The notes under the pieces were generated by a model. That model did no database searches. It saw only the letters and a list, made by a program, of their open reading frames with translations, and had not been told where the DNA came from. This document shows, in pieces, positions 32,568 to 60,754 of a stretch of DNA of 64,000 nt; position 1 is the first letter of the stretch; every line of letters starts with the position of its first letter. A program made the position numbers and the translations under genes. This DNA is from an uncultured Anaerolineaceae bacterium (GTDB taxonomy: Bacteria; Chloroflexota; Anaerolineae; Anaerolineales; E44-bin32): contig CAYMCO010000004.1 in assembly GCA_964388955.1 (NCBI GenBank), forward strand, positions 112,327-176,326, given 5' to 3'.

Positions 32568-32739
32568 ACGGATATAAATACAGTCGGGGCTTGGGGGAGC
32601 GACTGAATGCTGACCATACCAGCGATCGTATCGCGGGTTGTTGGTTGTCCCCTACCGCATATCCGCGCTGGGCGGCATATCGTGTCAGCGCCGGGCCCCC
32701 GGTCCGGATCCGCATGCTGAAGATGCCGGGAGGCTTCAT

Positions 32740-34110: not shown

Positions 34111-34131
34111 GAGGACAAAAGGAGGCCTACT

Positions 34132-35145: not shown

Positions 35146-35221
35146 CCATGGCCTGGCGTCGAAGCCCATGCAGGGAGGCGCGATTCCGTCGAAACCGCAG
35201 GCGCCGGGTGAACCGTTCGAT

Positions 35222-36913
35222 ATGAATCTGACCGCGCGACTGCTAAGAGAGGCATCACCGTACCGACTGCCGCTCATCGCCATCGCGGCGACCTGCGCGC
35301 TGACCGGGATCACGATCGTGGTGCAGGCCCACGCGCTCAGCTTCAGCATTGCACGGGCGTTCCTGGGTGGCTGGTCCCTATCTGCCCTGATTCCCATGAT
35401 ACTGGCCTTCACCTTCGCAAGCCTCGTCCGAGCGGGGCTGACCTCAGTTCGGATCCTCAGCGGCCAACGCCTGGCGAACCACGTCATTGCCAGCTTCCGT
35501 TCTCGGTTGGTGGCACACCTGTTCGAACTCGGGCCCGTACGTGTCAGCGCCGAGCGCAGCGGCGAACTGGCCAACACATTGGCCGAGGGCGTCGAGCACC
35601 TGGATGCCTACTTCGGGGGATATGTGCCGCAGATCGTCGCTACGGCTTCAATCCCCCTCATCCTGTTGGCCTTCGCCTTCCCCGTTGAGCCCCTCTCGGC
35701 CCTCCTGTTGCTCCTCACCGCCCCATTTCTATTGCTGCTGATGTACTTAATTGGGTCGGCAGCCGATCGGCTGGCGCGCCGACAATTCACCGCCCTCAGC
35801 CGGCTGAGTGCCCAGTTTATCGATTCCCTGCGGGGGCTGACTGCCCTCAAGCTGCTGGGCGCAAGTCGGGGGCGCTCCGATGTGATCGCAGAATCGAGCG
35901 AGCAGCTGCGAGAAAGGACTTTGGGCGTGCTGCGGCTGGCATTCCTCTCCGCCATGTCCCTCGAGATGTTGGCGATGATCAGCACAGCGATCGTTGCAGT
36001 TCAGGTTGGGCTGCGGCTGCTGAATGGGAAGCTCGGCTTCCAGCAGGGGCTCTTCGTCCTGCTGCTTGCCCCCGAGTTCTACCAGCCACTTCGAGCGCTT
36101 GGGGCGTGTTTCCACGCCGGCACGGCCGGGGCTTCCGCCGCGGAACGGATTTTCGAAATCCTCGATACAAGCCCCGAGAAGGTGCCCATCCAGCCTGGTT
36201 GGCGCCAGCATCAGATCGAGAGGACTGCGGTTGAATTCCGAAACGTGCATTTCTCCTATCCGGGGCGCCCGAAATCTGTGCTGCGCGGGGCGTCATTTTC
36301 TGTCCCGGCAGGGAGGACTGTGGCGCTGATCGGGCCCAGCGGCGAGGGCAAGTCGACCGTCGCCCACCTACTGCTCGGTTTTCTAAGACCAACGCGCGGG
36401 GAAATCATCGTGAACGGCTCCCCCCTGGCGCAGCACGACCTCGAGGCCTGGCGTTCCAACGTCTCATGGATACCACAGCATCCCTACCTCTTCAATCGCT
36501 CTGTGGAGGAAAATATCCGCCTCGCAAAACCATCGGCTTCCAATGCAGAGCTGATCGAAGCCGCGCGCCTCGCCGCCGCAGACCGCTTCATCCGGGCGTT
36601 GCCGCAGGGCTACGATACAGTTATCGGGGAGCGTGGCCTGCGTCTGAGCCGCGGGGAGGCACAGCGCGTCGCTCTGGCCAGGGCATTTCTCAAGGATGCC
36701 CCCTTCGTGATTCTCGACGAGCCCAGCGCGCACTTGGATCCGGAAACCGAAGCGCTCATTCGAACCTGCATGGAAAGCTTGCTGGCGGGGCGGAGCGCCC
36801 TGCTGATCGCCCACCGTTTGGGCAGCATACCTCAGCCAGCTGAAGTCATCGCCCTGTTCGACGGGCAGGTCTCTGAAAATGGGATTCCCACCGGCGCCTC
36901 GCCCGGGAGGTAG
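35222..36913 (+). CDS. cydD: thiol reductant ABC exporter subunit (CydD-type)
   Basis: Six-TM domain plus ABC ATPase (GPSGEGKST, LSRGEAQR). First of two ABC half-transporters after cydAB. The D versus C assignment rests on gene order only. Confidence 0.8.
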   Translation: MNLTARLLREASPYRLPLIAIAATCALTGITIVVQAHALSFSIARAFLGGWSLSALIPMILAFTFASLVRAGLTSVRILSGQRLANHVIASFRSRLVAHLFELGPVRVSAERSGELANTLAEGVEHLDAYFGGYVPQIVATASIPLILLAFAFPVEPLSALLLLLTAPFLLLLMYLIGSAADRLARRQFTALSRLSAQFIDSLRGLTALKLLGASRGRSDVIAESSEQLRERTLGVLRLAFLSAMSLEMLAMISTAIVAVQVGLRLLNGKLGFQQGLFVLLLAPEFYQPLRALGACFHAGTAGASAAERIFEILDTSPEKVPIQPGWRQHQIERTAVEFRNVHFSYPGRPKSVLRGASFSVPAGRTVALIGPSGEGKSTVAHLLLGFLRPTRGEIIVNGSPLAQHDLEAWRSNVSWIPQHPYLFNRSVEENIRLAKPSASNAELIEAARLAAADRFIRALPQGYDTVIGERGLRLSRGEAQRVALARAFLKDAPFVILDEPSAHLDPETEALIRTCMESLLAGRSALLIAHRLGSIPQPAEVIALFDGQVSENGIPTGASPGR

Positions 36914-36952
36914 CGTGAAATCACTTGCCCTTCACGCCCATGGGGGTGACAT

Positions 36953-38716
36953 GTGAGCGGGCTTCTTCTCCGGCTGGCGGGCTTGGCCCGGCCCATGGCG
37001 GCACGTATCGTGCTGTCCGTGCTGCTGGGGGCTGGAACGATACTCAGTGGAGTTTGCTTGCTCGCCATCTCGGCCTTCGTGGTGGCGAAAGCCGCGCTCC
37101 TGCCCCCCATCGCCGAACTGCAGCTCGCCATTGTGGGCCTGCGATTCACTGGGATCGCCAGGGGCGTACTGCGCTACCTGGAACGGTATACGTCCCATGG
37201 CATCACCCTCCATATTCTGGGCCGGCTGCGGGTGTGGTTCTATGATCTTTTGGCTCCTCTGGCCCCGGCGCGCTTGCTGACCCGCCATTCCGGCGATCTG
37301 ATGGCCCGCATCCTAGCGGATATCGCGACGCTCGAGGATTTCTATGCGCGTGTACTCACACCCCCCGCTGTCGCTCTGCTGACGGTAGTTGGGGGGACCC
37401 TTGTACTCGCCGGCCTGGATTTGCGTCTGGCGCTGTCCACACTCGGATTCTTCGTTCTCGCCGCGCTCGGGCTTCCCCTACTCTCGGAAAGACTGACCCG
37501 TGAGCCGGGAGCAAGATTGGTGCAGTTGAGATCCCAATTATACGTCGCTTCCCTGGACGCCGTGGGCGGCATGGCGGATCTGTTGGCGTTCGGTCACGCT
37601 CCGCTCCAGGCCCGCCTCGTGGAGAAGCTAACCGCCGAGGGCGCTCGGCACAAGGAGAGATGGGCGCGCGTCGATGCGCTCGGCGAGGCGATGTGCAGCT
37701 TGCTGGCTCAATTCTCGATCGCGGCTGCGCTCTTGATTCTCATCCCCATTGTGCGTTCCGGTGCTCTCGATGGGATACTGCTGGCGGTGATCCCTCTGGG
37801 CTTGCTCGCTGGGTTCGAGGCCTTTGGCCCGCTGACAAGCGCCTTCCGCAGACTACATGCCAGTCGGGAAGCGGCCCGGCGGCTGGAAGAGGTGGTTGCG
37901 GCGCCCCCCGCGGTAAGCGAACCGCCCGAACCGAAGCCACTTCCCAGAAACGCGGGGCTGGTGATTGACGACCTGAGCTTTCGATATGAAGCCGGGCGTC
38001 CGCTCGCCCTGGATGGCATCACGCTCGAACTACCGGAAGGCAGCTCGACCGCGATCGTCGGCCCCAGCGGATCGGGGAAGACTACCCTGGTCCATCTCTT
38101 GAACCGATTCTGGGATTATTCGCAGGGCCGGATCCTGATCGGCGGGGTTGAAATACGGGATTGCACGCCAGAAACCATCCGCCGCTGGTTCAGCGTCCTG
38201 CCCCAAGATCCCTACCTTTTCACGGGCACCATCCGGCAGAATCTGCTGCTGGCAAACCCGCAGGCTTCAGAGGGAGCGCTCCTGCAGTCGCTGCGAGTGG
38301 CGCAAGCGCAGGCATTCGTGGCAGAGCTTCCCGAAGGGCTGGACACTTTTGTCGGCGAAGGAGGTGTTCAGCTCAGCGGCGGTCAGCGGCAACGCATCGC
38401 TCTGGCGCGCAGCCTGCTGAAAGACAGCCCCATCCTGATCCTGGATGAACCCACCAATCATGTCGATCCCATCCTGGCGCGCGCTCTGATGCACTCGCTG
38501 CGGGCATGCACGACGGATCGGTCTTGGCTCGTGATCACACATCGACTACTGGACCTAGAATGCATGGACCAGATCGTCATTCTGCGCGCCGGGCGCATCG
38601 TAGGCCGAGGGACACATCGATCGCTCATGGCGTCTGGGGGCTACTATCGACCCTTGTGGGAGGCGCAGGTCGAACATCTGAAGATCGAAGCCGCTCACGA
38701 GGTGATCCGTGAATGA
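36953..38716 (+). CDS. cydC: thiol reductant ABC exporter subunit (CydC-type)
   Basis: 587 aa. TM domain plus ABC ATPase (GPSGSGKTT, LSGGQRQR). GTG start. Confidence 0.8.
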   Translation: MSGLLLRLAGLARPMAARIVLSVLLGAGTILSGVCLLAISAFVVAKAALLPPIAELQLAIVGLRFTGIARGVLRYLERYTSHGITLHILGRLRVWFYDLLAPLAPARLLTRHSGDLMARILADIATLEDFYARVLTPPAVALLTVVGGTLVLAGLDLRLALSTLGFFVLAALGLPLLSERLTREPGARLVQLRSQLYVASLDAVGGMADLLAFGHAPLQARLVEKLTAEGARHKERWARVDALGEAMCSLLAQFSIAAALLILIPIVRSGALDGILLAVIPLGLLAGFEAFGPLTSAFRRLHASREAARRLEEVVAAPPAVSEPPEPKPLPRNAGLVIDDLSFRYEAGRPLALDGITLELPEGSSTAIVGPSGSGKTTLVHLLNRFWDYSQGRILIGGVEIRDCTPETIRRWFSVLPQDPYLFTGTIRQNLLLANPQASEGALLQSLRVAQAQAFVAELPEGLDTFVGEGGVQLSGGQRQRIALARSLLKDSPILILDEPTNHVDPILARALMHSLRACTTDRSWLVITHRLLDLECMDQIVILRAGRIVGRGTHRSLMASGGYYRPLWEAQVEHLKIEAAHEVIRE

Positions 38717-46876: not shown

Positions 46877-47578
46877 ATGGGGCAAGAACCGGGGTACGGC
46901 CGCAGCACAGAAATGTACCTCAAGACTATTGCCGAACTGACGGAGCCGGGCGAGTTGGTGGCGATCTCCTCTCTCGCCGAGCGGATGGATATCTCCCCCG
47001 TCTCCGCGACGGAGATGGTCCACCGTATGCAGGAGAAAGGATTGCTGAAACATACGCCCTATCAGGGAGTCGCCTTGACGACAGCCGGTCGCCGCATCGC
47101 CATGGCCACCCTCCGGCGGCACCGCCTTTGGGAGCGATTTCTGGTCGACGCCCTTGGCCTGCCCTGGGAGGAAGTGCATGAAATCGCCTGCAATCTGGAA
47201 CACGCCGCTGGAGCGCAGGTCGCTGAAGCGCTGAGCGCTTTTCTCGGTGACCCGGATCGCTGCCCGCACGGCAATCCTATTCCCGAAGCAGGCCCCCGCA
47301 ATACCCCAGCCGCAGAGACACATCTGGACGAGCTAAACGCCGGGGAGGGGGCGATCGTCAGCCGCATCAAACCAGAATCTTCAGTCGTGCTCCGCAGCCT
47401 TGCGCCCTCAGGCATTCGACCTGGATCGCGGATCCGGGTGCGCGCCGTCGGACCCTTGGACGGGCCGCTTGCCATCGATACACCCCAAGGCCCTGTCAGC
47501 TTGGGCGCCAAGCTCGCGGCCCATGTGCGTATCGAACGCCTGCCAGAGAGAACACGGGCCGAGGTCGGAAAAGAATGA
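46877..47578 (+). CDS. DtxR/MntR/IdeR-family metal-dependent regulator with C-terminal FeoA/SH3-like domain
   Basis: Start at MGQEPGYGRSTEMYLKTI. HTH segment ISSLAERMDISPVSATEMVHRM, dimerisation/metal domain with HRLWERFL, and a C-terminal GEGAIVSRI...IRPGSRIRV domain. Confidence 0.85.
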   Translation: MGQEPGYGRSTEMYLKTIAELTEPGELVAISSLAERMDISPVSATEMVHRMQEKGLLKHTPYQGVALTTAGRRIAMATLRRHRLWERFLVDALGLPWEEVHEIACNLEHAAGAQVAEALSAFLGDPDRCPHGNPIPEAGPRNTPAAETHLDELNAGEGAIVSRIKPESSVVLRSLAPSGIRPGSRIRVRAVGPLDGPLAIDTPQGPVSLGAKLAAHVRIERLPERTRAEVGKE

Positions 47579-49629
47579 ACTCCTGCCATTCCTCCCCGGG
47601 CCACGCCGAATCCACACTCGAGGTGGGATTCCCTGACCGTGGTCGGGCGAAGGCCGACCCATCCCACGCCCGGGGCCCAGGCGCTATTTCCCCGTTGGAG
47701 AGCGCCGGGGCAATCGCGCTGGTCGGTCATCCAAACGTGGGCAAATCGGCCCTGTTCCAACACCTGACCGGATTGCACGTCACAGTCTCCAATTACCCGG
47801 GGACAACAATCGAGGTCATTCACGGTCCCAGCCAGACCCTGGAGGGCGCCGAGATCGTCGACACGCCGGGCGTGGTGACCCTGCCCTCCAGCACCACAGA
47901 CGAGCAGGCGACCGTCCGTCTGCTGCTCAGTGGGCCGCTGAAGGCCGTTATTCAGGTGGGGGACGCCAAGAACCTGCACCGCTCCCTGCTGTTGACCGTC
48001 ATTCTGGCGGAGATGGAAATCCCTATGGTGCTTGCGCTCAACATGGTGGACGAAGCGCATTCCCGCGGTATCGAACTGAACACGGATGCGCTCGTCGCTC
48101 GCATTCACGCGCCCGCCGTGAAGACGGTCGCTGTGCGAGGCGAGGGTTTGGAGGATCTTCTTTCGGCCGTCCGCCAGGCGCCAGCCCCTCATTTACATCT
48201 GCAGTATGCGCAGGAGATCGAGGCCGCTGTCGCGGAAATATCCCCGCATTTGCCACCCGCCGGGATCAGCCCCCGCTCGCTGGCGTTGCTTTGGTTCTCC
48301 AATGACCCCGCTGTGGACGATTTTCTGGCTCAGGCCTGTGACCGGACAGGGTATCTACATCTGATTGAGCACCGAGATAGGCTGCAGTTGGCGTTCGGGG
48401 AGCCGCTCTCCCTGGTGATCCAGCGGGCGCGCCTGGATTTCGTGGAGCAACTGGCAGCGGGCGTGGTGCTGGACAGCGGTGGGCCCTGGTCCGATTTCTC
48501 CTCTCGTCTCGGCCGGCTGGCCACGCATCCTTTTTGGGGCATTCCCATCCTGCTGCTGGTCCTGTTTGGCATGTATTGGTTCGTAGGGGTATTTGGAGCA
48601 GGAACGCTTGTCGATCTGCTGGAACGGGGGCTCTTCCGGGGGGTGATCAACCCCCCGCTGGTCTCCTGGGTGCAGAAGACCTCACCACTGCCCATGCTGT
48701 CCGACCTGCTGGTGGGAGAATATGGTCTCTGGACTATGGGTATGACCTACGCCGTAGCCTTGATTCTCCCCATCGTCACCACCTTCTTCCTGGCATTCAG
48801 CCTCATGGAGGATTCCGGGTACCTGCCGCGTCTTGCAGCATTTACCAACCGAATGTTCCGATTTATCGGGCTCAATGGCAAGGCAGTGCTACCCATGGTG
48901 CTCGGGCTGGGCTGTGTGACTATGGCGACCATGACTTCCCGCATTATGGAAACCAAACGCGACCGGCTGATGGTGATCTTGCTGCTGGCGCTGGCAATAC
49001 CTTGCTCCGCGCAACTGGGCATCGTCATGGGCATGCTCGCCAGCGTCTCCTTTGTCGCCACGGCGATCTGGGCGCTGGTCGTTCTGGGTGTACTGCTCGT
49101 CATTGGCTGGCTCGCAGCCAGGATTTTGCCTGGCGAGCGCACCTCGCTCCTGCTCGAGTTGCCACCCCTGCGCCGGCCGGCAATCTCGAACGTGCTGGCG
49201 AAGACGACCGCCCGCATCGAATGGTATCTGAAGGAGGTCTTGCCCCTCTTTCTCCTCGGAGCGCTGATCATGTTCATCATGGACAAGACGGGAGCGCTGG
49301 ACTGGTTGATCCGCGCCGCGGAGCCCCTGGTCTCAGGATGGCTCGGCCTGCCCGCACAAGCAAGCGCGGCCTTCATCCTCGGATTTCTGCGCCGCGATTT
49401 CGGAGCCACGGGCCTCTTTGTGATGGAGTCTCAGGGCTTGCTTGACCCCCGTCAAACCCTGGTCGCCATGGTCACCATCACCCTGTTCATACCCTGCATC
49501 GCCAGCGTGTTGATGATCGCCAAAGAGCGTGGCTGGCGGACCTCGTTGGCGGTGATGGGCTTGGTGATGCCATTGGCGTTTCTGACCGGCGGATTGCTCA
49601 ACTTGGCTCTGCTGGGAGTTGGATGGTGA
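47575..49629 (+). CDS. feoB: ferrous iron transporter FeoB
   Basis: 684 aa. N-terminal G-domain GHPNVGKSALF...DTPG followed by a multi-TM gate domain. ATGA overlap with the regulator gene. Confidence 0.9.
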   Translation: MNSCHSSPGHAESTLEVGFPDRGRAKADPSHARGPGAISPLESAGAIALVGHPNVGKSALFQHLTGLHVTVSNYPGTTIEVIHGPSQTLEGAEIVDTPGVVTLPSSTTDEQATVRLLLSGPLKAVIQVGDAKNLHRSLLLTVILAEMEIPMVLALNMVDEAHSRGIELNTDALVARIHAPAVKTVAVRGEGLEDLLSAVRQAPAPHLHLQYAQEIEAAVAEISPHLPPAGISPRSLALLWFSNDPAVDDFLAQACDRTGYLHLIEHRDRLQLAFGEPLSLVIQRARLDFVEQLAAGVVLDSGGPWSDFSSRLGRLATHPFWGIPILLLVLFGMYWFVGVFGAGTLVDLLERGLFRGVINPPLVSWVQKTSPLPMLSDLLVGEYGLWTMGMTYAVALILPIVTTFFLAFSLMEDSGYLPRLAAFTNRMFRFIGLNGKAVLPMVLGLGCVTMATMTSRIMETKRDRLMVILLLALAIPCSAQLGIVMGMLASVSFVATAIWALVVLGVLLVIGWLAARILPGERTSLLLELPPLRRPAISNVLAKTTARIEWYLKEVLPLFLLGALIMFIMDKTGALDWLIRAAEPLVSGWLGLPAQASAAFILGFLRRDFGATGLFVMESQGLLDPRQTLVAMVTITLFIPCIASVLMIAKERGWRTSLAVMGLVMPLAFLTGGLLNLALLGVGW

Positions 49630-50221: not shown

Positions 50222-51772
50222 ATGACATCCAAAAAGAGGTTGGAAGCGGTGCTACAGAGGATCACCCGCATACTCGAGCAGGGCAACCCGCAGAGGAGCC
50301 TGCAGACAAAGGTGACACTCTTGATTCTGGGCCCCTCCCTGCTGATCCTGGCGGTCGCGGGCGCGGTGGGATACGCGCAATCACGCCACCGAGTGCTGAG
50401 GAACATGTCCTTGCTGACATCTCAGACCGCCCAGGTAATCCAAGTGGCCCTGCGTCGAGATATGCTCGCCTCCGATTTTGAGAGCATGCAGGAGACGTTG
50501 GATATCATCGCCCGGGACAAGCATATCGATAACCTATATCTGCTGGACACGGATGGCCGGGTGGTGTTCGCGCCCCACAAGGCGAGCGTCGGCGAAGTTT
50601 TCAGCAACAAGGAACCTGCTTGCCAGCCCTGCCATTCACTTTCCCCGGCGGAGCGACCGCTGGGAGTGGCTGTGACAAATAGCGCGGGCCAGCCGGTGTT
50701 CCGCAGCATGCAGCCTATCGAGGTCCAGCCCGAATGCAGCCGCTGCCATGATCCCGATCAGCGCATCATCGGTCTGCTGTTGACAGATGTGGCCATATCA
50801 CCTTTCGAATCTGCTATCGCCCAAGAGACCCGTAATTCGCTCCTCTGGTGGGTTGGCACCATCATTCTGATCGTGATATTGGTCAATCTGGCGATCTCGC
50901 GCTTTGTGCTGCGCAGGATCAGCCATCTATCGGCCGCGATCGATCGTTTCGGACAGAATATGGAGCCCCCTTCGCTCCCCGATTCCCCCATGGATGAGAT
51001 CGGGAAGCTGAGCGGAGCTTTCGAATCCATGACGGCCCGCATCATCCAGCGAGAGGGTGAGAACAAGGATCTGACCGCGGCATTGGGGAGGCGGATGGAA
51101 GAGCGGGACAGGCTGCTGAAGCGCCTGATTGAGGCACAGGAACAGGAACGCAAGCGTCTGGCGCGAGAGCTGCATGACGACCTCGGTCAAGGGCTGAGCA
51201 CCGTGGCGCTGAACGTTGAGCTTGTGCAGAGCTCGATGCAGACCGATTCCGAATCCGCCCATCGCCACCTCGCGAGAATCCATGAGCTGGTCGCCGACGC
51301 CACCGAGCGGATGTACGATTTGATTCTCGGGCTTCGGCCCTCCTCCCTGGACGACTTGGGGCTGGTGGCGGCCCTGCGGGCGCTCGTCGGCCGCACCCTG
51401 GAAGCGGCTGGAATAGAGTGCGATTTCAACGTCCCGCAAGGCGACCGGCGATTGCCTCAAGAGGTCGAGATCACCCTGTTCCGCATCATTCAAGAGGCGC
51501 TCACCAACGTCGTCAAGCACGCGCACGCTGGCCATGTCGAACTCAAGCTCTGCCGGCAGGACGGCCTGTTGATCACAGAGATCAACGACAACGGCGTCGG
51601 CTTCAATCCCCTGGATCTCGACCGGCCCGGAGCGGCCGAGCGCGGTCTGGGGCTGCTGGGGATGCGCGAACGAGTGGAGCAATGCCAGGGGACGATCTCC
51701 ATTTGCAGCCAGCCCGGGCAAGGCACCCATATCATCGTGGAGCTACCGCTGAGGGAGACATGGCATGCGTGA
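50222..51772 (+). CDS. NarL-class sensor histidine kinase with periplasmic domain carrying two CXXCH motifs
   Basis: 516 aa. Two TM helices flank a ~150-aa loop containing CQPCH (50621..50635) and CSRCH (50735..50749). Followed by HAMP, HisKA_3 (ELHDDLGQ) and HATPase_c domains. Confidence 0.85.
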   Translation: MTSKKRLEAVLQRITRILEQGNPQRSLQTKVTLLILGPSLLILAVAGAVGYAQSRHRVLRNMSLLTSQTAQVIQVALRRDMLASDFESMQETLDIIARDKHIDNLYLLDTDGRVVFAPHKASVGEVFSNKEPACQPCHSLSPAERPLGVAVTNSAGQPVFRSMQPIEVQPECSRCHDPDQRIIGLLLTDVAISPFESAIAQETRNSLLWWVGTIILIVILVNLAISRFVLRRISHLSAAIDRFGQNMEPPSLPDSPMDEIGKLSGAFESMTARIIQREGENKDLTAALGRRMEERDRLLKRLIEAQEQERKRLARELHDDLGQGLSTVALNVELVQSSMQTDSESAHRHLARIHELVADATERMYDLILGLRPSSLDDLGLVAALRALVGRTLEAAGIECDFNVPQGDRRLPQEVEITLFRIIQEALTNVVKHAHAGHVELKLCRQDGLLITEINDNGVGFNPLDLDRPGAAERGLGLLGMRERVEQCQGTISICSQPGQGTHIIVELPLRETWHA

Positions 51773-52406
51773 GCGTATTCGGGTCCTGATCGCCGACGAC
51801 CATACGATCTTCCGCTCTGGATTGAACATGCTGCTGTCGAGCCAACCGGATATCGAAGTTGTCGGCGAGGCGACGGACGGCGACGAGTCCATCGCCGCCG
51901 CGGCCCGCCTGCGGCCCGACGTGATCCTGATGGACATCGGCATGCCCAACCTGAATGGAATAGAGGCCACGCGGCAGATCCGCGAGCGCGTGCCCGAAGC
52001 CGAGGTGTTGGTGCTCACCATGCATCGCTCCGACGAGTACTTCTTCCAGATGCTGGAAGCCGGTGCTTCGGGGTACATCCTCAAGGGCGCGGAGACCCAA
52101 GAATTGATCAGCGCCGTGCGCACCGTAGCGAAAGGGGAGGTCTTCCTATATCCGTCACTGGCCGGGAAGCTGGTGAAAGAGTATCTGAAACGAACCAACA
52201 TCGAGGGAGAGGACTCCCCCTTGTCTGAACGCGAAAGGCAGATCCTCAGGCTCATCGCCGAAGGGTTCACCGGCAAAGAGATCGCGGACCGCCTGGTGAT
52301 CAGCCCAAGCACGGTTCACTCCCACCGCACGAACATCATGCACAAATTGGAGCTGAAGAGCCGCCATGAGTTGGTGCGCTATGCCCGCCAGCGAGGGCTG
52401 CTCTAA
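51765..52406 (+). CDS. NarL/LuxR-family response regulator
   Basis: 213 aa. Receiver domain (LIADDH...DVILMDIGMP) plus a LuxR-type HTH (LSERERQILRLIAEGFTGKEIA). 8-nt overlap with the kinase gene. Confidence 0.9.
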   Translation: MRERIRVLIADDHTIFRSGLNMLLSSQPDIEVVGEATDGDESIAAAARLRPDVILMDIGMPNLNGIEATRQIRERVPEAEVLVLTMHRSDEYFFQMLEAGASGYILKGAETQELISAVRTVAKGEVFLYPSLAGKLVKEYLKRTNIEGEDSPLSERERQILRLIAEGFTGKEIADRLVISPSTVHSHRTNIMHKLELKSRHELVRYARQRGLL

Positions 52407-52570: not shown

Positions 52571-52954
52571 ATGGTTGGCCGGAAGGTGTTGGTCCTTTGG
52601 ACCAATCCGCTCTTTCATGAGACCATCCGTGTCCTGCTGCAGCAGGCGGACGTGGAGGTCGTCGGCGCCCTGCGCCGGCTTTCCCATTGGCAAGAACAGG
52701 TCCAGGCCCACCATCCGGATACGGTGATTATCGAGACTGGCGAGGACGAGAGCGCCAGCAACGGAGAGACCCTCTCCATCCTGCGCTCCGGACCAGCGGT
52801 CATCCGGCTCAGCCTTTCGGACAACGAGCTCAGCCTCTACAAACGGCAGCACAGGAGCATCAGCAGCACAGATGAGTTGATCGAGCTTATTCTGCCGGAC
52901 GCCGATCAGTCGCCGCCCGAGGAGAGCGAGGCAGATGCCCAAGGAACTACCTGA
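52571..52954 (+). CDS. hypothetical receiver-like (pseudo-receiver) protein
   Basis: 127 aa with a strong GGAGGAAGG Shine-Dalgarno. Alternating beta/alpha pattern like a CheY fold, but the acidic pocket and phospho-acceptor positions read VLWTN and IIETG. Confidence 0.5.
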   Translation: MVGRKVLVLWTNPLFHETIRVLLQQADVEVVGALRRLSHWQEQVQAHHPDTVIIETGEDESASNGETLSILRSGPAVIRLSLSDNELSLYKRQHRSISSTDELIELILPDADQSPPEESEADAQGTT

Positions 52955-53477
52955 GCGCACCGGGCCGCGCATGCGTTGGTTTCCGCTAGCCATCGGCGTC
53001 CTGCTTGCGGTGTTGTTGGCAGTATTGATCAGCCAGCGCGCCACCCTTTCCTCGCCCGAGCAGCCGATTGATTTCAGTCACCTGCGTCACAGCCAATCCG
53101 GTGTGGAATGCTTGTTCTGCCATCCGAACGCCCTGCGCTCTGACATCGCTGGACTCCCCTCTGTGCAGAAGTGCGCCGGATGCCATCAGGTGATTGCCAC
53201 GGATCAGCCGGAAATCAATCGGGTACTCGGATACTGGGAGAATGGGCAGGCCATCCCATGGCGGCCAGTCGTCAATTTGGATGATTACGTATTCTTCAGC
53301 CACCACGCGCACACCCGGGCCGGGGTCAGCTGCGAGACGTGTCATGGGGATGTCGCTCAAATGGACACCGCCCGCGAGGTCCTTCACATGGACATGGGCT
53401 GGTGTCTCGATTGCCATCTGGAGCAATCGCCCGAGCGGGTCGGCAAACTCGTCGATTGTCTAACCTGTCACGAATGA
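52935..53477 (+). CDS. actA: alternative complex III pentahaem cytochrome c subunit
   Basis: 180 aa. N-terminal TM helix and five CXXCH motifs (CLFCH, CAGCH, CETCH, CLDCH, CLTCH). First gene of the act cluster. Confidence 0.85.
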   Translation: MPKELPERTGPRMRWFPLAIGVLLAVLLAVLISQRATLSSPEQPIDFSHLRHSQSGVECLFCHPNALRSDIAGLPSVQKCAGCHQVIATDQPEINRVLGYWENGQAIPWRPVVNLDDYVFFSHHAHTRAGVSCETCHGDVAQMDTAREVLHMDMGWCLDCHLEQSPERVGKLVDCLTCHE

Positions 53478-55705
53478 GGCATGGGCATATGGGTAGAAAG
53501 ATCGATCGCCGCACCTTCTTGAAGCTCACCGCCGGTGCCACCGCTGTCGCCACCGGGCTGAGCCCACGCACCCGCCGCGTGCTGCTGGAACCCTATGTGC
53601 GCCCGCCCGAGGAGGCCCTGCCCGGACAGGCAACTTGGTATGCGAGCACCTGCCGGCAGTGCCCCGCCGGATGCGGCATCCTGGTGCGGGTCATCAACGG
53701 GCGGCCGCGTAAGATCGAAGGCAACCCGGACCACCCCCTCAACCGAGGAAAGCTCTGCGCCCGTGGCCAGGCCGGTCTGCAGGCTCTATATGATCCAGAC
53801 CGGCTGCGCAACGCAGTCCGGCAGGCGGCAGCACCGGGCTATCACTACTTCGAGCCAATCGCCTGGGGTCAGGCGCTCGATCAGATCGCTTCCCGCCTCA
53901 GCGGCGCGGGAAGCGGGACACGGGTCGCGTTCCTGGCGAACTGGTTGCCGGATCACCTATACGATCTCGCCAGCCGATTCTTGGGGGCGTTCGATGTAGG
54001 CCCCCCTGTGGTTTATGACCTCCACACCGCCCTCGAGGGGCGCTCCGTGCTCGCCGAAGCGGCTGAGCATTGGTTCGACACGCGCGACTTGCCCATCTAC
54101 GACATCTCGCGGGCCGAGGTGATCTTCTCCTTCGGTGCGAACTTCCTTGAGACGTGGATGTCCCCCGTCTCCCAAGCGGTCGATTTTGGCGGTATGCGCC
54201 AGGGTCAGGTGAGCGGACGGGGTCATTTCGTCCAATTCGAACCCCGCCTGTCTTCCACAGGCGCAACCGCGGATGAGTGGGTGCCCATCCGGCCGGGGAC
54301 GGAGGGATTTGTGGCCCTGGGGATCGGCCGTGTGATCGTGGAGGAAAACCTGGGGCAGGTGGGGTTGCAGCGGGCGAACGCCGGTCTATATCGGGACGTG
54401 AGCGTGGCGCAAGCCGCTGAGGCGAGCGGAATGCCGGCCGATGAGCTCCGGCGCCTGGCGCGGATCCTCGCCAGCGTCGAGAGACCGCTCGCGATCCCCG
54501 GGGGTTCCCTCTCCGGGGTATCCAACGGCGTCGCGGCAGCCGAAGCCATCATGGCGCTGAATGTGATCCTGCAGCGCCTGGGCCGCGAGGGCGGCGTCTT
54601 CCTGCCTCAGCCCTTGCCCACCCAGACTTTCTCGAACCGGACCACACCCAGTTCATACCATCAGATGGCAGAGTTGATTGACAGCATGCGGCGAGGGCTG
54701 GTGGATGTGCTCTTCATCCACGGCGCCAACCCCGTCTATGAACTTCCTCCCTGGATGGATTTCCTGCGGTCAATGCAGAAAGTGCCGCTGGTCGTGTCAT
54801 TCAGTTCCATAGTGGATGAGACGGCGGCATATGCCGATCTGGTGCTGCCGGACCATTCCTATCTGGAAGCATGGGGATACGAGGTGAACCGGATCGGGGT
54901 CGATCGCCCTATCGTGAGCAGTCAGCAGCCAGTGACGCGGCCGCTGTACGACACCCGCTCGACGGCAGATGTGCTGCTGGCCCTTGCGGCGCGCCTGGGC
55001 GGTAGGGCCGCGGAGGCCCTGCCCTGGACGAACGAGGTCGACTACTTGAGGGAACAGGCCAGCGCGTTGCTGGGCTCCAGCATCGGCGCATTCGATGCCC
55101 AGACCCCGGGCGGATTTTGGAGCACCTGGCGCCAACTCGGCGGATGGTGGGCCCGGAACCCCATCCGGCGCGAGCCTGTCACCACCCGCTCGTTGTCCGC
55201 CCCCCTGCAGGTGCCTGAGCCGATGCTTGTGGGGGATGAAACCCGCTTTCCGCTGCTCCTCGTCCCTTTCGAATCCATCACTCTGACCGATGGCCGAGGC
55301 GCCAATCAGCCCTGGCTGCAAGAGACCCCAGATCCGATGACGACCGCGCGTTGGGGAACATGGATCGAGCTGAACCCCGAGACGGCGGCCCGGCTGGGCG
55401 TCGAGAACAACGATCTGGTGCGCGTTGTCTCGACATACGATGAGATTGAGATTCCCGTGGTGGCCTATCCCGCCATCCGCCCAGACGTGGTTGCCATCCC
55501 CACCGGGCAAGGTCACAAAGATGGGGGGCGGTTTGCGGCCAACCGCGGGGCCAACGTGATGGCAGTGATGGCAACTCCCAAGAATCCCTTCGCCGATCAC
55601 ATGCCGTGGGCATCCACCCGAGTGCGGGTCGAGCCCACCGGCAAGAGACAGCAACTCGCCCGATTGGAGAGCTTGGATGCCGAAGGTCGCGAAACACTCC
55701 GCTGA
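53474..55705 (+). CDS. actB: alternative complex III molybdopterin-oxidoreductase-like subunit (ActB1)
   Basis: Tat signal DRRTFLKLTAGATAVA, N-terminal Cys cluster CRQCPAGCG, and a large MopB-like fold. ATG at 53474 overlaps the actA stop; ATG at 53489 is also possible. Confidence 0.85.
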   Translation: MRHGHMGRKIDRRTFLKLTAGATAVATGLSPRTRRVLLEPYVRPPEEALPGQATWYASTCRQCPAGCGILVRVINGRPRKIEGNPDHPLNRGKLCARGQAGLQALYDPDRLRNAVRQAAAPGYHYFEPIAWGQALDQIASRLSGAGSGTRVAFLANWLPDHLYDLASRFLGAFDVGPPVVYDLHTALEGRSVLAEAAEHWFDTRDLPIYDISRAEVIFSFGANFLETWMSPVSQAVDFGGMRQGQVSGRGHFVQFEPRLSSTGATADEWVPIRPGTEGFVALGIGRVIVEENLGQVGLQRANAGLYRDVSVAQAAEASGMPADELRRLARILASVERPLAIPGGSLSGVSNGVAAAEAIMALNVILQRLGREGGVFLPQPLPTQTFSNRTTPSSYHQMAELIDSMRRGLVDVLFIHGANPVYELPPWMDFLRSMQKVPLVVSFSSIVDETAAYADLVLPDHSYLEAWGYEVNRIGVDRPIVSSQQPVTRPLYDTRSTADVLLALAARLGGRAAEALPWTNEVDYLREQASALLGSSIGAFDAQTPGGFWSTWRQLGGWWARNPIRREPVTTRSLSAPLQVPEPMLVGDETRFPLLLVPFESITLTDGRGANQPWLQETPDPMTTARWGTWIELNPETAARLGVENNDLVRVVSTYDEIEIPVVAYPAIRPDVVAIPTGQGHKDGGRFAANRGANVMAVMATPKNPFADHMPWASTRVRVEPTGKRQQLARLESLDAEGRETLR

Positions 55706-56414
55706 TCATGTCGCCAACCCGGAGCACCGCTGGGGGATGGTCATTGATCTGGACCGATGCACCGGATGCCAGGCGTGCGTGGTCGCCTGCCACGCGGAGA
55801 ATAACGTCCCCGTTGTCGGTGAGCGCGAGGCCGTCCGCAGGCGCACCATGCATTGGATCCGCATCGAACGCTATTGGGAGGGGGAGTTCCCCAACGTGCG
55901 GGCGCGTTTCATGCCTGTTCTCTGCCAACAATGCGGGGAGGCCCCATGTGAGCCCGTGTGCCCGGTATTTGCCACCTATCACACCCCGGAGGGGCTGAAC
56001 GCACAGGTCTACAACCGCTGTATCGGCACACGCTTCTGTGGCAGCGCCTGCCCATATAAGGTGCGCATGTTCAATTGGTTCCGGCCGGATTTTCCGGAGC
56101 CGCTGGAACAACAGCTCAACCCGGATGTTTCTGTTCGGGGGCGAGGCATCATCGAGAAATGCTCCTTCTGCATCCAGCGCATCCGGAGAGCCGAGCTGCG
56201 GGCTGATCTGGAAGGCACAGCCCCGGACGATGGGGCGATCCAGCCTGCCTGCGTGCAGACTTGCCCCTCCTCCGCCCTGCTGTTCGGCGATTTGGGGGAT
56301 CCGGATAGCCGCGTAAGCCGCCTGGCGCGGGGCAACCGCGCCTTCCGGCTGCTGGAAGGCCTGGGCACAGATCCGGCTGTGATCTATCTCAAGGGAGGCG
56401 AAGCCAATGCCTGA
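55677..56414 (+). CDS. actB: alternative complex III 4Fe-4S ferredoxin subunit (ActB2)
   Basis: 245 aa. WGMVIDLDRCTGCQACVVACHAENN plus further Cys clusters (CQQCGEAPC, CIGTRFCGSACP, CSFC). Confidence 0.85.
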   Translation: MPKVAKHSADHVANPEHRWGMVIDLDRCTGCQACVVACHAENNVPVVGEREAVRRRTMHWIRIERYWEGEFPNVRARFMPVLCQQCGEAPCEPVCPVFATYHTPEGLNAQVYNRCIGTRFCGSACPYKVRMFNWFRPDFPEPLEQQLNPDVSVRGRGIIEKCSFCIQRIRRAELRADLEGTAPDDGAIQPACVQTCPSSALLFGDLGDPDSRVSRLARGNRAFRLLEGLGTDPAVIYLKGGEANA

Positions 56415-57849
56415 CGCGGCCCCGACACCACCGCAAGAAGGTCCGACTCAGAGCGAGGGGGCTGAACTCAGCGACGAAATCCATGGCCGGTTGCTCCTCG
56501 AGAAGCGGACCGACCGGGAGATCAATGAGGCGGTGCTGCGACCTATGCTCCACTCCGGATGGGGATTTTGGTCCCTGGCCGCGGTGCTCGTGGCCATCAT
56601 CCTGTGGGGTCTGTACGCTTGGTTTTATCAGGTTCGCTGGGGTATGGGGGTAGCGGGCATCAACCAGCCCGTCTATTGGGGCCTGTACATCACGACCTTT
56701 GTGTTCTGGGTCGGGATCAGCCACGCCGGCACCATGATCTCGGCGGTGCTCCGGCTGCTGCGGGTGGATTGGCGCCGTCCCATCACCCGCGGTGCCGAGG
56801 CGATGACCGCCTTCGCCTTGATGATGGCCGCCTTGTATCCGCTGATTCACCTGGGCCGAGTGTGGAAATTCTATTGGATGATCCCGTATCCGAACAATCG
56901 GGCCATGTGGCCCAACTTCCAGTCTCCGCTTATGTGGGATATGGTCGCCATCTTCACCTACTTGATCGGCTCTTCCCTGTATCTGTACCTGGCATTGATC
57001 CCCGATCTGGCTGTCGCCAGAGACTACACGCAAGGGTGGCGCTACAGGCTCTACCGGATATTCTCTCTGGGGTGGCGGGGAACGGAGAGCGAGTGGCATA
57101 AGATGCATCGCGCGCTCTCGATATTCAGTGTGATCATCATCCCCGTCTTCCTCTCCGTGCACTCGATTGTCTCCTGGGACTTTGCGGTCACCATCCAACC
57201 CCGCTGGCACAGCACGATCTTCGCACCCTATTTCGTGATCGGCGCAGTCTATTCGGGGCTCTCCGCGCTGGCCACCATCCTCATCATTGTGCGCAAGACC
57301 ATGCATTTGGAGGACTTTCTGCGGCGCGAGCACTTCGACGGCTTGGGGAAACTGGTCATGGTGGCCGGCCTGGCTTGGATCTACTTCTGGTTCGCCGGCT
57401 TCATCGTCGAATGGTACGGCAAGGAGCCCGTCATCCAAGCGTTGATTCACGAGGAAATCAGCGGGCCATTGGCGCCCTTCTTCTGGCTTCAGATAGCCGC
57501 AAATGTGATCCCTCCCGCCCTGCTCGTCTCCAGGCGGCTGCGCACCAATCCGACCACCTTGCTGCTGATCACGTTGTTGGTCAATGTGGGGATGTTCACC
57601 GAACGGGCCCTGATCGTGATCGGTAATCTGCAGCGCAATTATCTGCCTTTCGATTGGGGCACCTACCATCCAAGCTGGGTGGAGGTCAGCATCGTGGCAA
57701 TGACCTTCGCTGGGTTCGCGCTGCTCTACACACTGTTCTCCCGGATCGTCCCCTACGTGCCGATCTGGGAAATCCGGGAGGGTCGCCTGCGCTACACGCT
57801 TCGCCGCATTGGCCGCCTGCTGGTTCCCACCGCGGCGGAGATAGAATAG
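56407..57849 (+). CDS. actC: alternative complex III NrfD/PsrC-like quinol-interacting membrane subunit
   Basis: 480 aa with about 10 TM helices. NrfD-family-like, with an 8-nt overlap with actB2. Confidence 0.85.
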   Translation: MPDAAPTPPQEGPTQSEGAELSDEIHGRLLLEKRTDREINEAVLRPMLHSGWGFWSLAAVLVAIILWGLYAWFYQVRWGMGVAGINQPVYWGLYITTFVFWVGISHAGTMISAVLRLLRVDWRRPITRGAEAMTAFALMMAALYPLIHLGRVWKFYWMIPYPNNRAMWPNFQSPLMWDMVAIFTYLIGSSLYLYLALIPDLAVARDYTQGWRYRLYRIFSLGWRGTESEWHKMHRALSIFSVIIIPVFLSVHSIVSWDFAVTIQPRWHSTIFAPYFVIGAVYSGLSALATILIIVRKTMHLEDFLRREHFDGLGKLVMVAGLAWIYFWFAGFIVEWYGKEPVIQALIHEEISGPLAPFFWLQIAANVIPPALLVSRRLRTNPTTLLLITLLVNVGMFTERALIVIGNLQRNYLPFDWGTYHPSWVEVSIVAMTFAGFALLYTLFSRIVPYVPIWEIREGRLRYTLRRIGRLLVPTAAEIE

Positions 57850-57858
57850 GAGTCCGCT

Positions 57859-58383
57859 ATGGCCGAAGGGGTCCAACTGCTCGCCCTGTTCGAGGAATCC
57901 ACCGCCACCGCCCAGGCCATCGACGCCCTCCACGACGCGGGCATCCCCGATGAAAAGGTCGTGGTGATGACCGGCGTCCCCTATCCCGAGAGGGCGCTCG
58001 GCCGACGTGTAGAGTGGCTGCGGCTTCCCTATATCGTCGTGGCAGGGGCCTTCGTCGGCCTGCTGTTCGGCCTGTTTCTGGCGGTCATCACCCCACATCT
58101 CTACCGGCTGGACATCGGCGGGCATCCGCCTGTGGGATTCCCTCCAGCCGGGGTGATCATCTTCGTGTTCGCCATGATGGCCACCATCATCTCTACATTT
58201 CTGGGCGTGATCTGGGAGATGGGATTTCCGGAATTCGGGCCAAAGCACTATCACAAGATGGTCAGCGATGGATACCTCGCTGTGCTCGTAGACACCACAG
58301 AAGAACTCCAAGAGACGGTGCGCCGCATTCTGCACGAGGGTGGGGCGCGCGAGGTCGAGCGTCCGGAGAAACAGCTACTATGA
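57859..58383 (+). CDS. actD: alternative complex III subunit ActD (DUF3341-like)
   Basis: 174 aa. Soluble N-terminal domain (LLALFEESTATAQAIDALHDAG) plus two TM helices. Position between actC and actE. Confidence 0.65.
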   Translation: MAEGVQLLALFEESTATAQAIDALHDAGIPDEKVVVMTGVPYPERALGRRVEWLRLPYIVVAGAFVGLLFGLFLAVITPHLYRLDIGGHPPVGFPPAGVIIFVFAMMATIISTFLGVIWEMGFPEFGPKHYHKMVSDGYLAVLVDTTEELQETVRRILHEGGAREVERPEKQLL

Positions 58384-58892
58384 GCAGAAGAACACGCAGA
58401 GGCTTGACCTTCATCGCCATCGTACTTGCGCCTTTTGTCATTGGCCTGTTGATCACCTATCAATGGATCCGCATCCCCTTCACCACGGATCTTGCCATCT
58501 CTCCGGCGATCGACTACCAGGAGGGTCCCAGGCGACTCCCGCCGGATGGGGCGGTTCCATACCAGGGCGAGGCGCTTATCTCTGGGGAGTTTCCACAGAA
58601 TCCCGTCCCCAGCAGCCCAGAGTCCCTGCAGCGAGGGGAGATCCTCTATCACCTCCATTGCGCCATCTGCCATGGGAATGCTGGCCGGGGGGACGGCCCA
58701 TTGGCGGATCGTTTCAGCCGCACCCCCGAAAACCTCTCCGGCGCCCAGGCGGCGGCCGAATTCGACGGATCGGTATACCTGGCTATCCTGCAGGGCTTCG
58801 GGGAAATGCCTTCGCTCGCCGAAAACTTGACCCGGCGCGAGCGCTGGGACGTGATCAACTACATACGGACCCTGCCCGGCCAAGGGGAGTAG
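58380..58892 (+). CDS. actE: alternative complex III monohaem cytochrome c subunit
   Basis: 170 aa from MSRRTRRGLTF (ATG 58380, overlapping the actD stop). One TM helix and a single CAICH motif. Confidence 0.75.
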   Translation: MSRRTRRGLTFIAIVLAPFVIGLLITYQWIRIPFTTDLAISPAIDYQEGPRRLPPDGAVPYQGEALISGEFPQNPVPSSPESLQRGEILYHLHCAICHGNAGRGDGPLADRFSRTPENLSGAQAAAEFDGSVYLAILQGFGEMPSLAENLTRRERWDVINYIRTLPGQGE

Positions 58893-58904: not shown

Positions 58905-59951
58905 ATGGGGAAGCAGAAAATCCTGATTGGGGCTTCGGTCGCCATCGGTGCTTTGTTCTTCAGCGCTTGCCGGCCGCAGGCCGGCCTTCCGGCAGGGCCG
59001 ACACCGATCCCCACTCTCGCCCCGGTGGAGGCCTTCGAAGCCGAGCCGCTGCCCAGCGAGACCCCTGTGGGGGCCATCTTGAGCTATCCGGCGCGCCCCC
59101 CCTCCGCGCAGCAAGGCCAGGACCTGTATTTCAACTACTGCCTCGAATGCCACGGGCCGGATGGCACAGGCGCGATGCCAAAGGCGCGCAATTTCCTTGA
59201 CCTCGACTACATGCGCGGCGAAGCGCCTGCGACCTTTTACGCAGCGGTGACCGAAGGCCGCGGCGAGATGCCCGCCTACCAAGACATCCTGAACTCAGAT
59301 GAACGCTGGGACGCCGTCTACTACATCTGGCGGCTGTCCACCAGCGAACAGACCCTGGAGCAGGGGTCTCAGATCTACGAGCAGAACTGCGCCTCCTGTC
59401 ATGGCGAGAACGGTTCGGGTGAATTGCTGGGCGCGGCCGATTTCACGAATCTGCGTGAGATGGCGAACTTGGCTCCGCGCGACTTGTATCTGACTGTGAC
59501 CCAGGGTCGCGGCTCCATGCCCGGATGGCAGCCGCTCTTGAGCCAAGACCAGCGATGGGCGGTCATCGACTACGTATCGTCATTCTCGTACGATCCGGCG
59601 TTGGAGGCGGAGGGGGCAACGACGCCAGACGCTGCCCCCCCAAGCCAACCGCCCACCTGCGACGCTCAGCAGGAGAATCCCTTCGCCTGGGACGACGCCG
59701 ATGCCGTTGCGGCTGGGGGCGCGATCTTTGAGGCCCAGTGCACCATCTGCCATGGTCAAGATGGCCGGGGAGGTCTGCCCGGCACGGTGGACTTCACCTC
59801 CCAGAATGTGAGCGCGGAGCTGCAAGAGACGGCTGGGGAGAAGTTCTGCCTGATCACCGGGGGGATGGGGGCCATGCCGTCTTTCCGCCAGACTCTGACA
59901 GCAGAGGAGCGATGGCAGGCCCTCACATTCCTGGCCTCACTGGGAAAGTAG
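58905..59951 (+). CDS. trihaem class-I cytochrome c lipoprotein
   Basis: 348 aa. Signal sequence ending FFSAC, and three class-I domains (CLECH, CASCH, CTICH), each followed by a GxMP motif. Confidence 0.8.
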
Positions 59952-60058
59952 GAGAGAGACACCCCCAAGGCCGGGACCTGGAAGAAAGGAGGTGCGTCGG
60001 CAGAGAACCCCTTTTCGTCTCGCCGTAAGAACGCTTCACAATATGAGGAGAATATCGC

Positions 60059-60754
60059 ATGCGACAGAAATACCTGATTGGATTGGCCGTATTCACCTGC
60101 CTGGCCATCGCCTTATCCGCCTGCGCCGGCTCACAGGGGCCACCCGGGCCCGAGGGTCCGCCCGGCCCCCAGGGCCCCGCCGGTCCCGCAGGGCCTACTG
60201 GGCCCGAAGGCCCGCCCGGGCCGGCAGGAGCAGACCTCACGGAGGAACAGCAGGCCGCGCTGGAATACGCGGGCATGCTGTCCGAATCTTTCGCCTTCCC
60301 ATCGGTGGAGAACACACCCAGAGGATGCCCCTCCTGTCACGTCCTGGTTGACGAGGAGACCGGCAAATACACCTTGCCGTACGAGGCGCACGAACGCGCC
60401 GAAGTGCGCGGCGAGGAGCACCCCGATGTCGCCCCGGACGGCACCTCGCTGGCTGTGACCGAGGAAGTGAAGGTGACCACCTGCCTGCAGTGCCATGCCT
60501 CCGGCACGGGCGCCCGGGAGGATATGGGGGTTGTGGCACCGCTGGCGCTACGGGACATCGTGCACCCGGCGCACCTGTACAGCTCGACGTTCAAGTTCCA
60601 TTATGGTGGCAACTGTTTCACCTGTCACAATGTGAACGGCGAAGGGGAATTCGAGCTGCTCACGGAAGCCGTGGAAACCAACGAGAAGGGCGTCCCAGAC
60701 CCTGCCAATCTGCCCATCCCAGGAGCGATGATATTCGACGAGGAAGGGCAGTAG
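60059..60754 (+). CDS. trihaem cytochrome c lipoprotein with collagen-like Gly-X-Y stalk
   Basis: 231 aa. LSAC lipobox, ten consecutive G-X-Y triplets, then CPSCH, CLQCH and CFTCH, all in one frame. Confidence 0.75.
60137..60229 (+). repeat. collagen-like (Gly-X-Y)x10 coding repeat
   Basis: [31 protein letters not shown], read directly from the frame of ORF 60059..60754. Confidence 0.9.

Follow-up and report, generated by a model that had tools for sequence, protein, structure and literature searches.

Several kinds of bacterial protein carry collagen-like tracts, and others tether cytochromes to the membrane. The former are known as adhesins and as spore and phage fibres, for instance Scl1 and Scl2 of Streptococcus, BclA of Bacillus and Lcl of Legionella. 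In these proteins the Gly-X-Y repeat is uninterrupted and free of hydroxyproline, matches the Pfam family PF01391, and favours Pro at X and Gln, Thr or Ala at Y; one end is attached to the envelope and the other carries a globular domain. Tethered cytochromes are known with floppy linkers, and the lipoprotein cytochromes c550 and c551 of Bacillus are tethered carriers with an architecture like that of cytochrome cy. Cytochrome cy of Rhodobacter consists of an anchor, a linker and a haem domain and acts as a restricted-diffusion shuttle from a quinol-oxidising complex (PMC8361435). In the stretch of DNA analysed here, 64,000 nucleotides from an uncultured Anaerolineaceae bacterium of the Chloroflexota (contig CAYMCO010000004.1; hereafter the window), the two themes are joined in a single gene. 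It encodes a lipoprotein in which a collagen-like tract directly follows the lipobox and precedes a domain with three haem-binding motifs. This architecture is conserved among relatives, the glycine periodicity of the tract is under selection, and the gene is linked to genes for a two-component system with a putative dihaem sensor and for the alternative complex III (ACIII). With moderate confidence we interpret the protein as a tethered electron carrier, the stalk of which would be a short homotrimeric triple helix.

The Gly-X-Y tract and its distribution

The features of the gene, all on the forward strand, are as follows.

60059-60754 (+): trihaem c-type cytochrome lipoprotein gene with collagen-like stalk, open reading frame of 231 amino acids
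60059-60124 (+): signal peptide with the lipobox L-S-A-C22 at its end, as read from the sequence
60128-60235 (+): collagen-like region of 12 uninterrupted Gly-X-Y triplets, G24-D59 (residues 24-59), conserved and length-variable in homologues
60236-60289 (+): conserved helix directly after the tract, consensus LTEEQ..ALE.A, with L60, Q64 and A71 nearly invariant
60320-60751 (+): trihaem domain of an uncharacterised family (AlphaFold2 model, pLDDT 94.2, pTM 0.82)
60326-60340 (+): first CXXCH motif, CPSCH, residues 90-94, invariant in alignments of 93 and 94 sequences
60419-60421 (+): His121, candidate distal haem ligand, invariant in alignment A1 and nearly so in the divergent alignment A3
60482-60496 (+): second CXXCH motif, CLQCH, residues 142-146, invariant in the same two alignments
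60563-60574 (+): His169 and His172 (HPAH), candidate distal haem ligands, invariant in A1 and A3
60614-60628 (+): third CXXCH motif, CFTCH, residues 186-190, likewise invariant

An AGGAG motif lies about 8 nt 5' of the ATG. The signal peptide has a charged n-region and a hydrophobic core and ends in L-S-A-C22, which satisfies the lipobox pattern [LVI][ASTVI][GAS]C, and Cys22 is the predicted site of lipidation. The tract itself consists of GSQ, ten GP(x) triplets and GAD. An initial annotation of this DNA had described ten triplets at 60137-60229; these are the true core of the tract, but the full run has 12 triplets, since it includes the flanking GSQ and GAD. The supposed abundance of Pro at both variable positions holds for X (10 of 12 triplets) but not for Y (3 of 12). 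The remaining elements of that description, namely the lipobox Cys, the collagen-type tract and three CXXCH motifs (at residues 90, 142 and 186) in a genuine coding frame, are all present, and signal peptide, haem motifs and homologues agree on the frame.

In 100 first-order Markov simulations of the window, which has 62% GC, the longest Gly-X-Y run in six frames reached 4-7 triplets. Only one further long run occurs in the window, and it is the tract's own reverse-complement shadow: an antisense open reading frame at 59923-60315 (-) of 130 amino acids, which also recurs in related loci, reads the complement of the tract as Gly-X-Y. This is a shadow frame and no gene. With 28.0 bits, the Collagen model of Pfam (PF01391) narrowly passes its gathering cut-off of 27.2, the margin being small on account of the short tract. 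The NCBIfam models for Scl and Lcl remain far under their cut-offs (26 versus 325 bits), and membership in these adhesin families was rejected on that account. A scan for promoters and terminators around the gene gave nothing informative.

Since the complementary strand reads as Gly-X-Y too and repeats can mis-assemble, a risk which the initial annotation had pointed out, one could suspect that the tract is an artefact of a GC-rich shadow frame or of a mis-assembled repeat. However, the Logan assembly of SRR14802573 covers the whole gene and is identical to the window over 13,942 nt (0 mismatches), although its reads may not be independent of the source of the window. The repeat is also degenerate at the DNA level (68-80% matches), and its glycines use all four Gly codons; it is therefore neither a product of recent slippage nor a perfect repeat prone to collapse. 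Moreover, the same frame, with signal peptide and haem motifs, recurs in hundreds of homologues. The artefact explanation is thereby effectively refuted.

Homologues were retrieved with the C-terminal domain alone (residues 58-231) as query, in order to keep collagen words from biasing the retrieval. The search gave 240 homologues, nearly all of them without annotation and from metagenomes of Anaerolineae or other Chloroflexota; tract statistics refer to the 98 full-length sequences among 120 listed of these 240. A Gly-X-Y tract is present in 84 of the 98 and comprises 4-18 triplets with a median of 9, so that the tract is both conserved and variable in length, which the initial annotation had named as the point to check. 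Position X is occupied by Pro in 68% of the triplets, and position Y by Ala (39%), Gln (22%), Pro (11%) and Glu (8%). The tract starts exactly two residues past the lipobox Cys in 59 homologues and ends about 30 residues ahead of the first CXXCH. In the 90 lipobox-bearing members, one single register accounts for a median of 90% of the linker between Cys and helix, and a genuine second register occurs in none of them; breaks by loss of a single Gly were noticed by eye in two sequences of the homologue listing (P0019 and P0031). All 12 triplets persist in cluster relatives from JGI and Logan data (87-99% identity), whose eight substitutions within the tract affect X or Y in every case. One member of another cluster has exactly one triplet fewer. 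That the glycine register is kept while X, Y and length vary is the pattern expected with selection on glycine periodicity, and judging from the homologous sequences, Gly at every third residue is under such selection across the family.

A profile search of 1.84 billion cluster representatives found 108 that match the trihaem domain, and these relatives differ in their N-termini. Besides the lipobox with Gly-X-Y tract, they possess a transmembrane helix with Gly-X-Y tract, irregular linkers (acidic or rich in Pro and Ala in the distant members), Ig-like or DUF11 domains, or an SLH motif. In six loci (L038, L039, L043, L052, L056 and L066) an uncleaved N-terminal transmembrane helix is directly followed by 8-17 triplets; these variants come mostly from metagenome-assembled genomes (MAGs) labelled Bathyarchaeia or Thaumarchaeota. 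The variant L038 adjoins a gene for HMG-CoA reductase, which is consistent with an archaeal contig but is no proof of it, and the same MAG holds a paralogue without tract (L042). There are also longer forms of 437-477 amino acids (657 in P0126), many versions from Anaerolineales having about 440-477, with additional haem-binding sequence fused behind the trihaem domain (L008, L011-L014, L016, L017, L019, L021, L025-L027, L031, L033, L040, P0121 and P0126). In P0121 and P0126, the two examined with Pfam, the fused part consists of class-I cytochrome c domains.

For the helix that follows the tract (60236-60289), AlphaFold2 gives a pLDDT of about 93-95. It might act as a nucleation or neck helix or might be packed on the haem domain. 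For the trihaem domain, a domain-only model built from a more diverse alignment replaced the full-length model, which had reached a pLDDT of only 70.7. His121, His169 and His172 are invariant or nearly so down to members with about 30% identity. Together with the three CXXCH motifs, this suggests that the domain probably binds three bis-His haems. Foldseek matched nothing with the full-length model, and with the domain model it gave no PDB match under E=2.7; when the PDB was searched by sequence, the matches were confined to collagen peptides or to the level of the CXXCH motif. The Pfam models Cytochrome_C7, CIII and MtrC II/IV are all sub-threshold for the protein of the window, and a few relatives just pass. 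The class-I models PF00034 and PF13442 do not match it, and some relatives acquire such domains by fusion.

The tract is not confined to the trihaem family. A scan of about 1 Mb of related DNA that had been fetched revealed that Gly-X-Y runs of at least 7 triplets outside shadow frames all lie in open reading frames for cytochromes, with the exception of one frame that is cut by the end of its locus. This frame (L060:10744-11094, +) stands directly 3' of a trihaem homologue and encodes a lipobox as well as 12 Gly-X-Y triplets; no CXXCH occurs in the 186 residues that are visible, the C-terminal part being situated beyond the end of the locus. Two of the runs belong to hexahaem lipoproteins just downstream of an ACIII cluster.

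L014:18679-19770: hexahaem lipoprotein
L040:18642-19736: hexahaem lipoprotein

The hexahaem lipoproteins have about 360 amino acids, a lipobox, 12-14 Gly-X-Y triplets and six CXXCH motifs in a c3/c7-like domain that is unrelated to the trihaem family. They match Cytochrome_C7, c3 and MtrC-II/IV of Pfam above threshold and Collagen with 28.8 bits. For their haem domain by itself there are more than 2,156 relatives at E <= 1e-10, and 77 of the 78 full-length sequences among the top 120 matches possess a lipobox followed by 5-15 Gly-X-Y triplets. The idea that Gly-X-Y is simply the local style of lipoprotein linkers was rejected, since the neighbouring lipoprotein at 58905-59951 has an irregular Pro-rich linker and the runs in about 1 Mb are nearly all found in cytochromes. 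A heterotrimer of trihaem and hexahaem chains was also considered; there is no evidence for it, and the tract lengths within L014 are unequal (11 versus 13 triplets).

Genomic context

Upstream of the trihaem gene, the window carries the following genes.

50222-51772 (+): HisKA_3 sensor kinase with two CXXCH motifs in its periplasmic domain (Pfam)
51765-52406 (+): LuxR/GerE-type response regulator, syntenic with the trihaem gene in about 20 loci
52935-53477 (+): ActA-like multihaem subunit of ACIII
53489-56414 (+): ActB1 (molybdopterin-like, with TAT signal) and ActB2 (4Fe-4S) as separate genes
56407-58383 (+): ActC (NrfD-like) and ActD
58380-58892 (+): ActE-like membrane-anchored monohaem cytochrome c
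58905-59951 (+): lipoprotein with three class-I cytochrome c domains and an irregular Pro-rich linker that is not Gly-X-Y

The two motifs of the kinase, CQPCH and CSRCH, are about 38 residues apart and lie between its two transmembrane helices, and the protein looks like a dihaem c-type redox sensor. To assess the linkage, we considered 75 loci, 69 from GTDB species representatives and six obtained earlier; the 69 stem mostly from MAGs of Anaerolineales, Promineifilaceae and Bellilinea, all uncultured. The trihaem gene is syntenic with kinase, response regulator and ActA-E in 15 of the 75 loci, or in 14 if the second assembly of the window is left aside. The response regulator gene starts about 1.3-1.5 kb upstream of the match to the trihaem domain.

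The commonest gene order is kinase, response regulator, trihaem gene (or its fusion with class-I domains), ActA-E and class-I cytochrome, which is found in 12 loci, complete or cut by a contig end. The initial annotation had placed the trihaem gene at the end of the ACIII cluster. This is correct for the window, where it is the last gene, as it is in the second assembly (L001) and in L005/L006, but in relatives it mostly comes first, between response regulator and ActA. In the window, that slot holds an open reading frame of 127 amino acids without Pfam match (52571-52954, +). In several loci, e.g. L016, L026, L027, L028 and L032, the unit of kinase, response regulator and trihaem gene occurs without ACIII, and other trihaem members have as neighbours either an NrfCD-like module with a cupredoxin or a Rieske/cytochrome b complex. 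In the loci, separate genes match ActA and ActE. Because of its varied place in the operon and its occurrence without ACIII, the trihaem protein is an accessory redox partner of quinol-oxidising complexes and no core Act subunit. Class-I domains homologous to those of the neighbouring protein 58905-59951 are fused to the trihaem protein in other genomes, so that the same domain type appears both as a fusion and as a separate neighbour gene, which supports a functional link of both proteins.

Some further observations concern the window as such. Within the ACIII cluster (52935-58892) ActB is split, and there is a single NrfD-like gene, so ActF is absent. The range 32638-38716 holds cydA and cydB for a cytochrome bd oxidase, followed by two ABC-transporter genes resembling cydDC; FeoB, together with FeoA, is encoded at 47575-49629, just upstream of the two-component system. 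A haem-copper oxidase was not found within the 64 kb.

Triple helix, extended spacer or signalling relay

In the interpretation that we favour, Cys22 would be lipidated and the collagen-like region would then span the entire distance from Cys22 to the haem domain. Three chains would zip the tract into a short, non-hydroxylated triple helix, aided by their shared membrane anchoring and perhaps by the conserved helix or the haem domain at the C-terminal end. The stalk would measure about 10 nm in the window (36 residues, with a rise of 0.286 nm each) and about 8 nm in a family member of median length (27 residues), and it would set three trihaem domains at a fixed height over the membrane. The initial annotation had envisaged a rigid stalk of 8-9 nm with a nine-haem cluster, likewise on the supposition of a trimer. 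The trihaem domains might exchange electrons with the periplasmic ACIII cytochromes and with the neighbouring class-I cytochrome lipoprotein. The protein would belong to the regulon and to the electron-output side of ACIII. Regardless of whether the tether is a rigid trimer or an extended monomer, it would hold a low-potential multihaem head close to these cytochromes as a non-diffusible electron carrier, in a role analogous to that of cytochrome cy (PMC8361435) or of the soluble ACIII acceptors of Roseiflexus (PMC10873879).

The main argument for a triple helix is the strictness of the repeat. The collagen triple helix is the only known structure that needs Gly at every third residue of a Pro-rich tract, and both cytochrome families adhere to this requirement, as do both types of anchor, lipobox Cys and uncleaved transmembrane helix. 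A hint at a trimer also comes from nine relatives, mostly from MAGs of Actinomycetota and Thermoleophilia, in which exactly one SLH (cell-wall-binding) motif replaces the tract (P0120, P0151, P0160, P0165, P0172, P0186, P0190, P0193 and P0219), because single-SLH proteins join three chains: in OmpM and SlpA, the binding domain is put together from three SLH copies, each contributed by a different chain (PMC10628300). Furthermore, GPP makes up 21% of the penultimate C-terminal triplets compared to 7.6% overall, which is an approximately threefold enrichment. Collagen nucleation normally starts at the C-terminal end (PMC11923368), and the enrichment of GPP beside the conserved helix fits such a C-terminal nucleation.

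There are also several points that weigh against a triple helix. The tract is short and without hydroxyproline; the melting temperature is only about 27 °C for free (GPP)10 and 10 °C for (GPO)6 (PMC7824840), and the GPA and GPQ triplets should be weaker than GPP. In 956 triplets of the homologues we counted 19 Lys/Arg compared to 154 Glu/Asp, and KGE/KGD salt bridges are absent because there is almost no Lys or Arg in the tracts. Irregular linkers of Pro, Ser, Thr and Glu take the place of the tract in 14 of the 98 homologues, and more distant members possess DUF11-like or Big_7 Ig-like domains instead. The relatives with an SLH motif or with such domains also include L054, L063, L068, L072 and L073. 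A triple helix is therefore dispensable to the haem domain, and since linkers, Ig-like/DUF11 domains or SLH can replace it, the minimal role of the tract is that of a spacer. The AlphaFold2 predictions covered single chains, and the trihaem domain has no solved relative from which its fold class or a trimer interface could be read. What the short triple helix lacks in stability may come from membrane co-anchoring or from a trimerising head.

It is possible, if on the doubtful side, that the same tethered carrier is monomeric and that its tract forms an extended, semi-rigid spacer of the polyproline-II type. The irregular linkers of the 14 homologues are of similar length, the distant relatives use folded domains as spacers, low intrinsic stability is to be expected of a tract that is short, unhydroxylated and poor in salt bridges, and membrane-anchored cytochrome cy works on a long flexible linker (PMC8361435). 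However, such a spacer does not need Gly at each third residue, yet the register is unbroken apart from the two single-Gly substitutions that were seen, and the unconstrained linker in the same operon (58905-59951) is irregular and Pro-rich. A different proposal concerns function only and is compatible with either structure of the stalk: the cytochrome might mainly serve in signalling and relay the redox state of the periplasmic cytochromes or of the quinol pool to the dihaem domain of the adjacent kinase, instead of conducting the bulk of the respiratory current. Kinase, response regulator and trihaem gene do form the tightest linkage, which is kept in loci without ACIII, and in loci with the trihaem gene, each of the 22 kinase frames whose alignment spans nearly the entire kinase has two periplasmic CXXCH motifs about 38 residues apart. 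But a regulated target would just as well be expected beside its regulator, the class-I fusions and the clusters with ACIII, NrfCD-like or bc-type complexes indicate electron transport, and in the window the trihaem gene is about 8 kb away from the kinase. We consider signalling as the main function rather unlikely; for the tethered carrier, signalling towards the dihaem kinase might be an alternative or additional function.

Comparison with known systems

Collagen-type tracts and tethered cytochromes are each known, but their combination and its breadth appear undescribed. In full-text literature searches, no paper was found that contains both "collagen-like" and "multiheme cytochrome", and "collagen triple helix repeat" together with "c-type cytochrome" gave no match except for a paper on corrosion by Methanosarcina, the content of which was not assessed. 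A 2022 review of prokaryotic collagen-like proteins mentions neither "cytochrome" nor "lipoprotein" in its text. Public annotations name the trihaem and hexahaem proteins "hypothetical" or "cytochrome c3 family". The initial annotation had known of no collagen repeat attached to a cytochrome, which agrees with these searches; the protein of the window is not unique, however, as the hexahaem family carries the tract too.

In these two families, the collagen-type tract makes up nearly the whole tether of a multihaem cytochrome. If it is triple-helical, it fixes the number of heads at three and also determines how high the haem cluster stands. Electron transfer in the envelope of Chloroflexota would then follow a new design principle; these are organisms that are abundant in sediments, groundwater and sludge and biochemically little characterised. 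We tentatively suggest that collagen helices might be a general device for trimeric, lipid- or transmembrane-anchored multihaem assemblies in the mostly uncultured Chloroflexota and possibly in some archaea, with heads of nine or eighteen haems that stalks of about 8-13 nm keep at a set height in the envelope. If so, these assemblies would link ACIII and further quinol oxidoreductases electrically with their acceptors, in cells that perhaps have no outer membrane to retain soluble carriers, and they would be the first case of a collagen fold used in bioenergetics. A triple-helical tract would also provide collagen biophysics with a natural set of minimal, non-hydroxylated candidates of variable length. 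The proteins are small, and the predictions are easily testable.

The likeness to Scl, BclA and Lcl lies in the repeat and in the arrangement of anchor and globular domain. These proteins are adhesins or spore fibres with tens of triplets and are anchored by LPXTG or in the basal layer of the exosporium, whereas the trihaem proteins have only 4-19 triplets, starting two residues past a lipobox Cys, and a redox domain at the other end. For Scl2, a melting temperature of about 36 °C is given in the 2022 review. Phage SPP1 gp12, a protein of 64 amino acids, forms trimers with a central, non-hydroxylated collagen-like fold (PMC6316719), and a tract of this size can therefore be triple-helical; gp12 is a viral capsid binder, with neither membrane anchor nor enzyme or redox domain. 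Bucl8 of Burkholderia resembles the trihaem protein in that a collagen-like region is part of a functional membrane protein, itself trimeric, rather than of a fibre. It differs as a diderm's outer-membrane efflux channel, with an extracellular (Gly-Ala-Ser)n tract and no redox cofactors.

A working analogy is offered by collectins, C1q, ColQ-tailed acetylcholinesterase and the collagens XIII and XVII, in which a C-terminally nucleated collagen stalk holds three heads off an anchor point. The homology to these eukaryotic oligomers is limited to the repeat, and their stalks are hydroxylated and much longer.

On the side of electron transfer, auracyanin and the cytochrome c551 of Roseiflexus are small redox proteins that accept electrons from ACIII in Chloroflexota (PMC10873879). 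The former is a blue-copper protein and the latter a monohaem cytochrome; both are unrelated to it in sequence and have no collagen-like tether. Cytochrome cy and the Bacillus cytochromes c550 and c551 share the overall design of anchor, linker and haem domain. They are monomeric, with monohaem class-I domains on flexible, irregular linkers, whereas the protein described here combines an uncharacterised trihaem fold with a strict Gly-X-Y tether.

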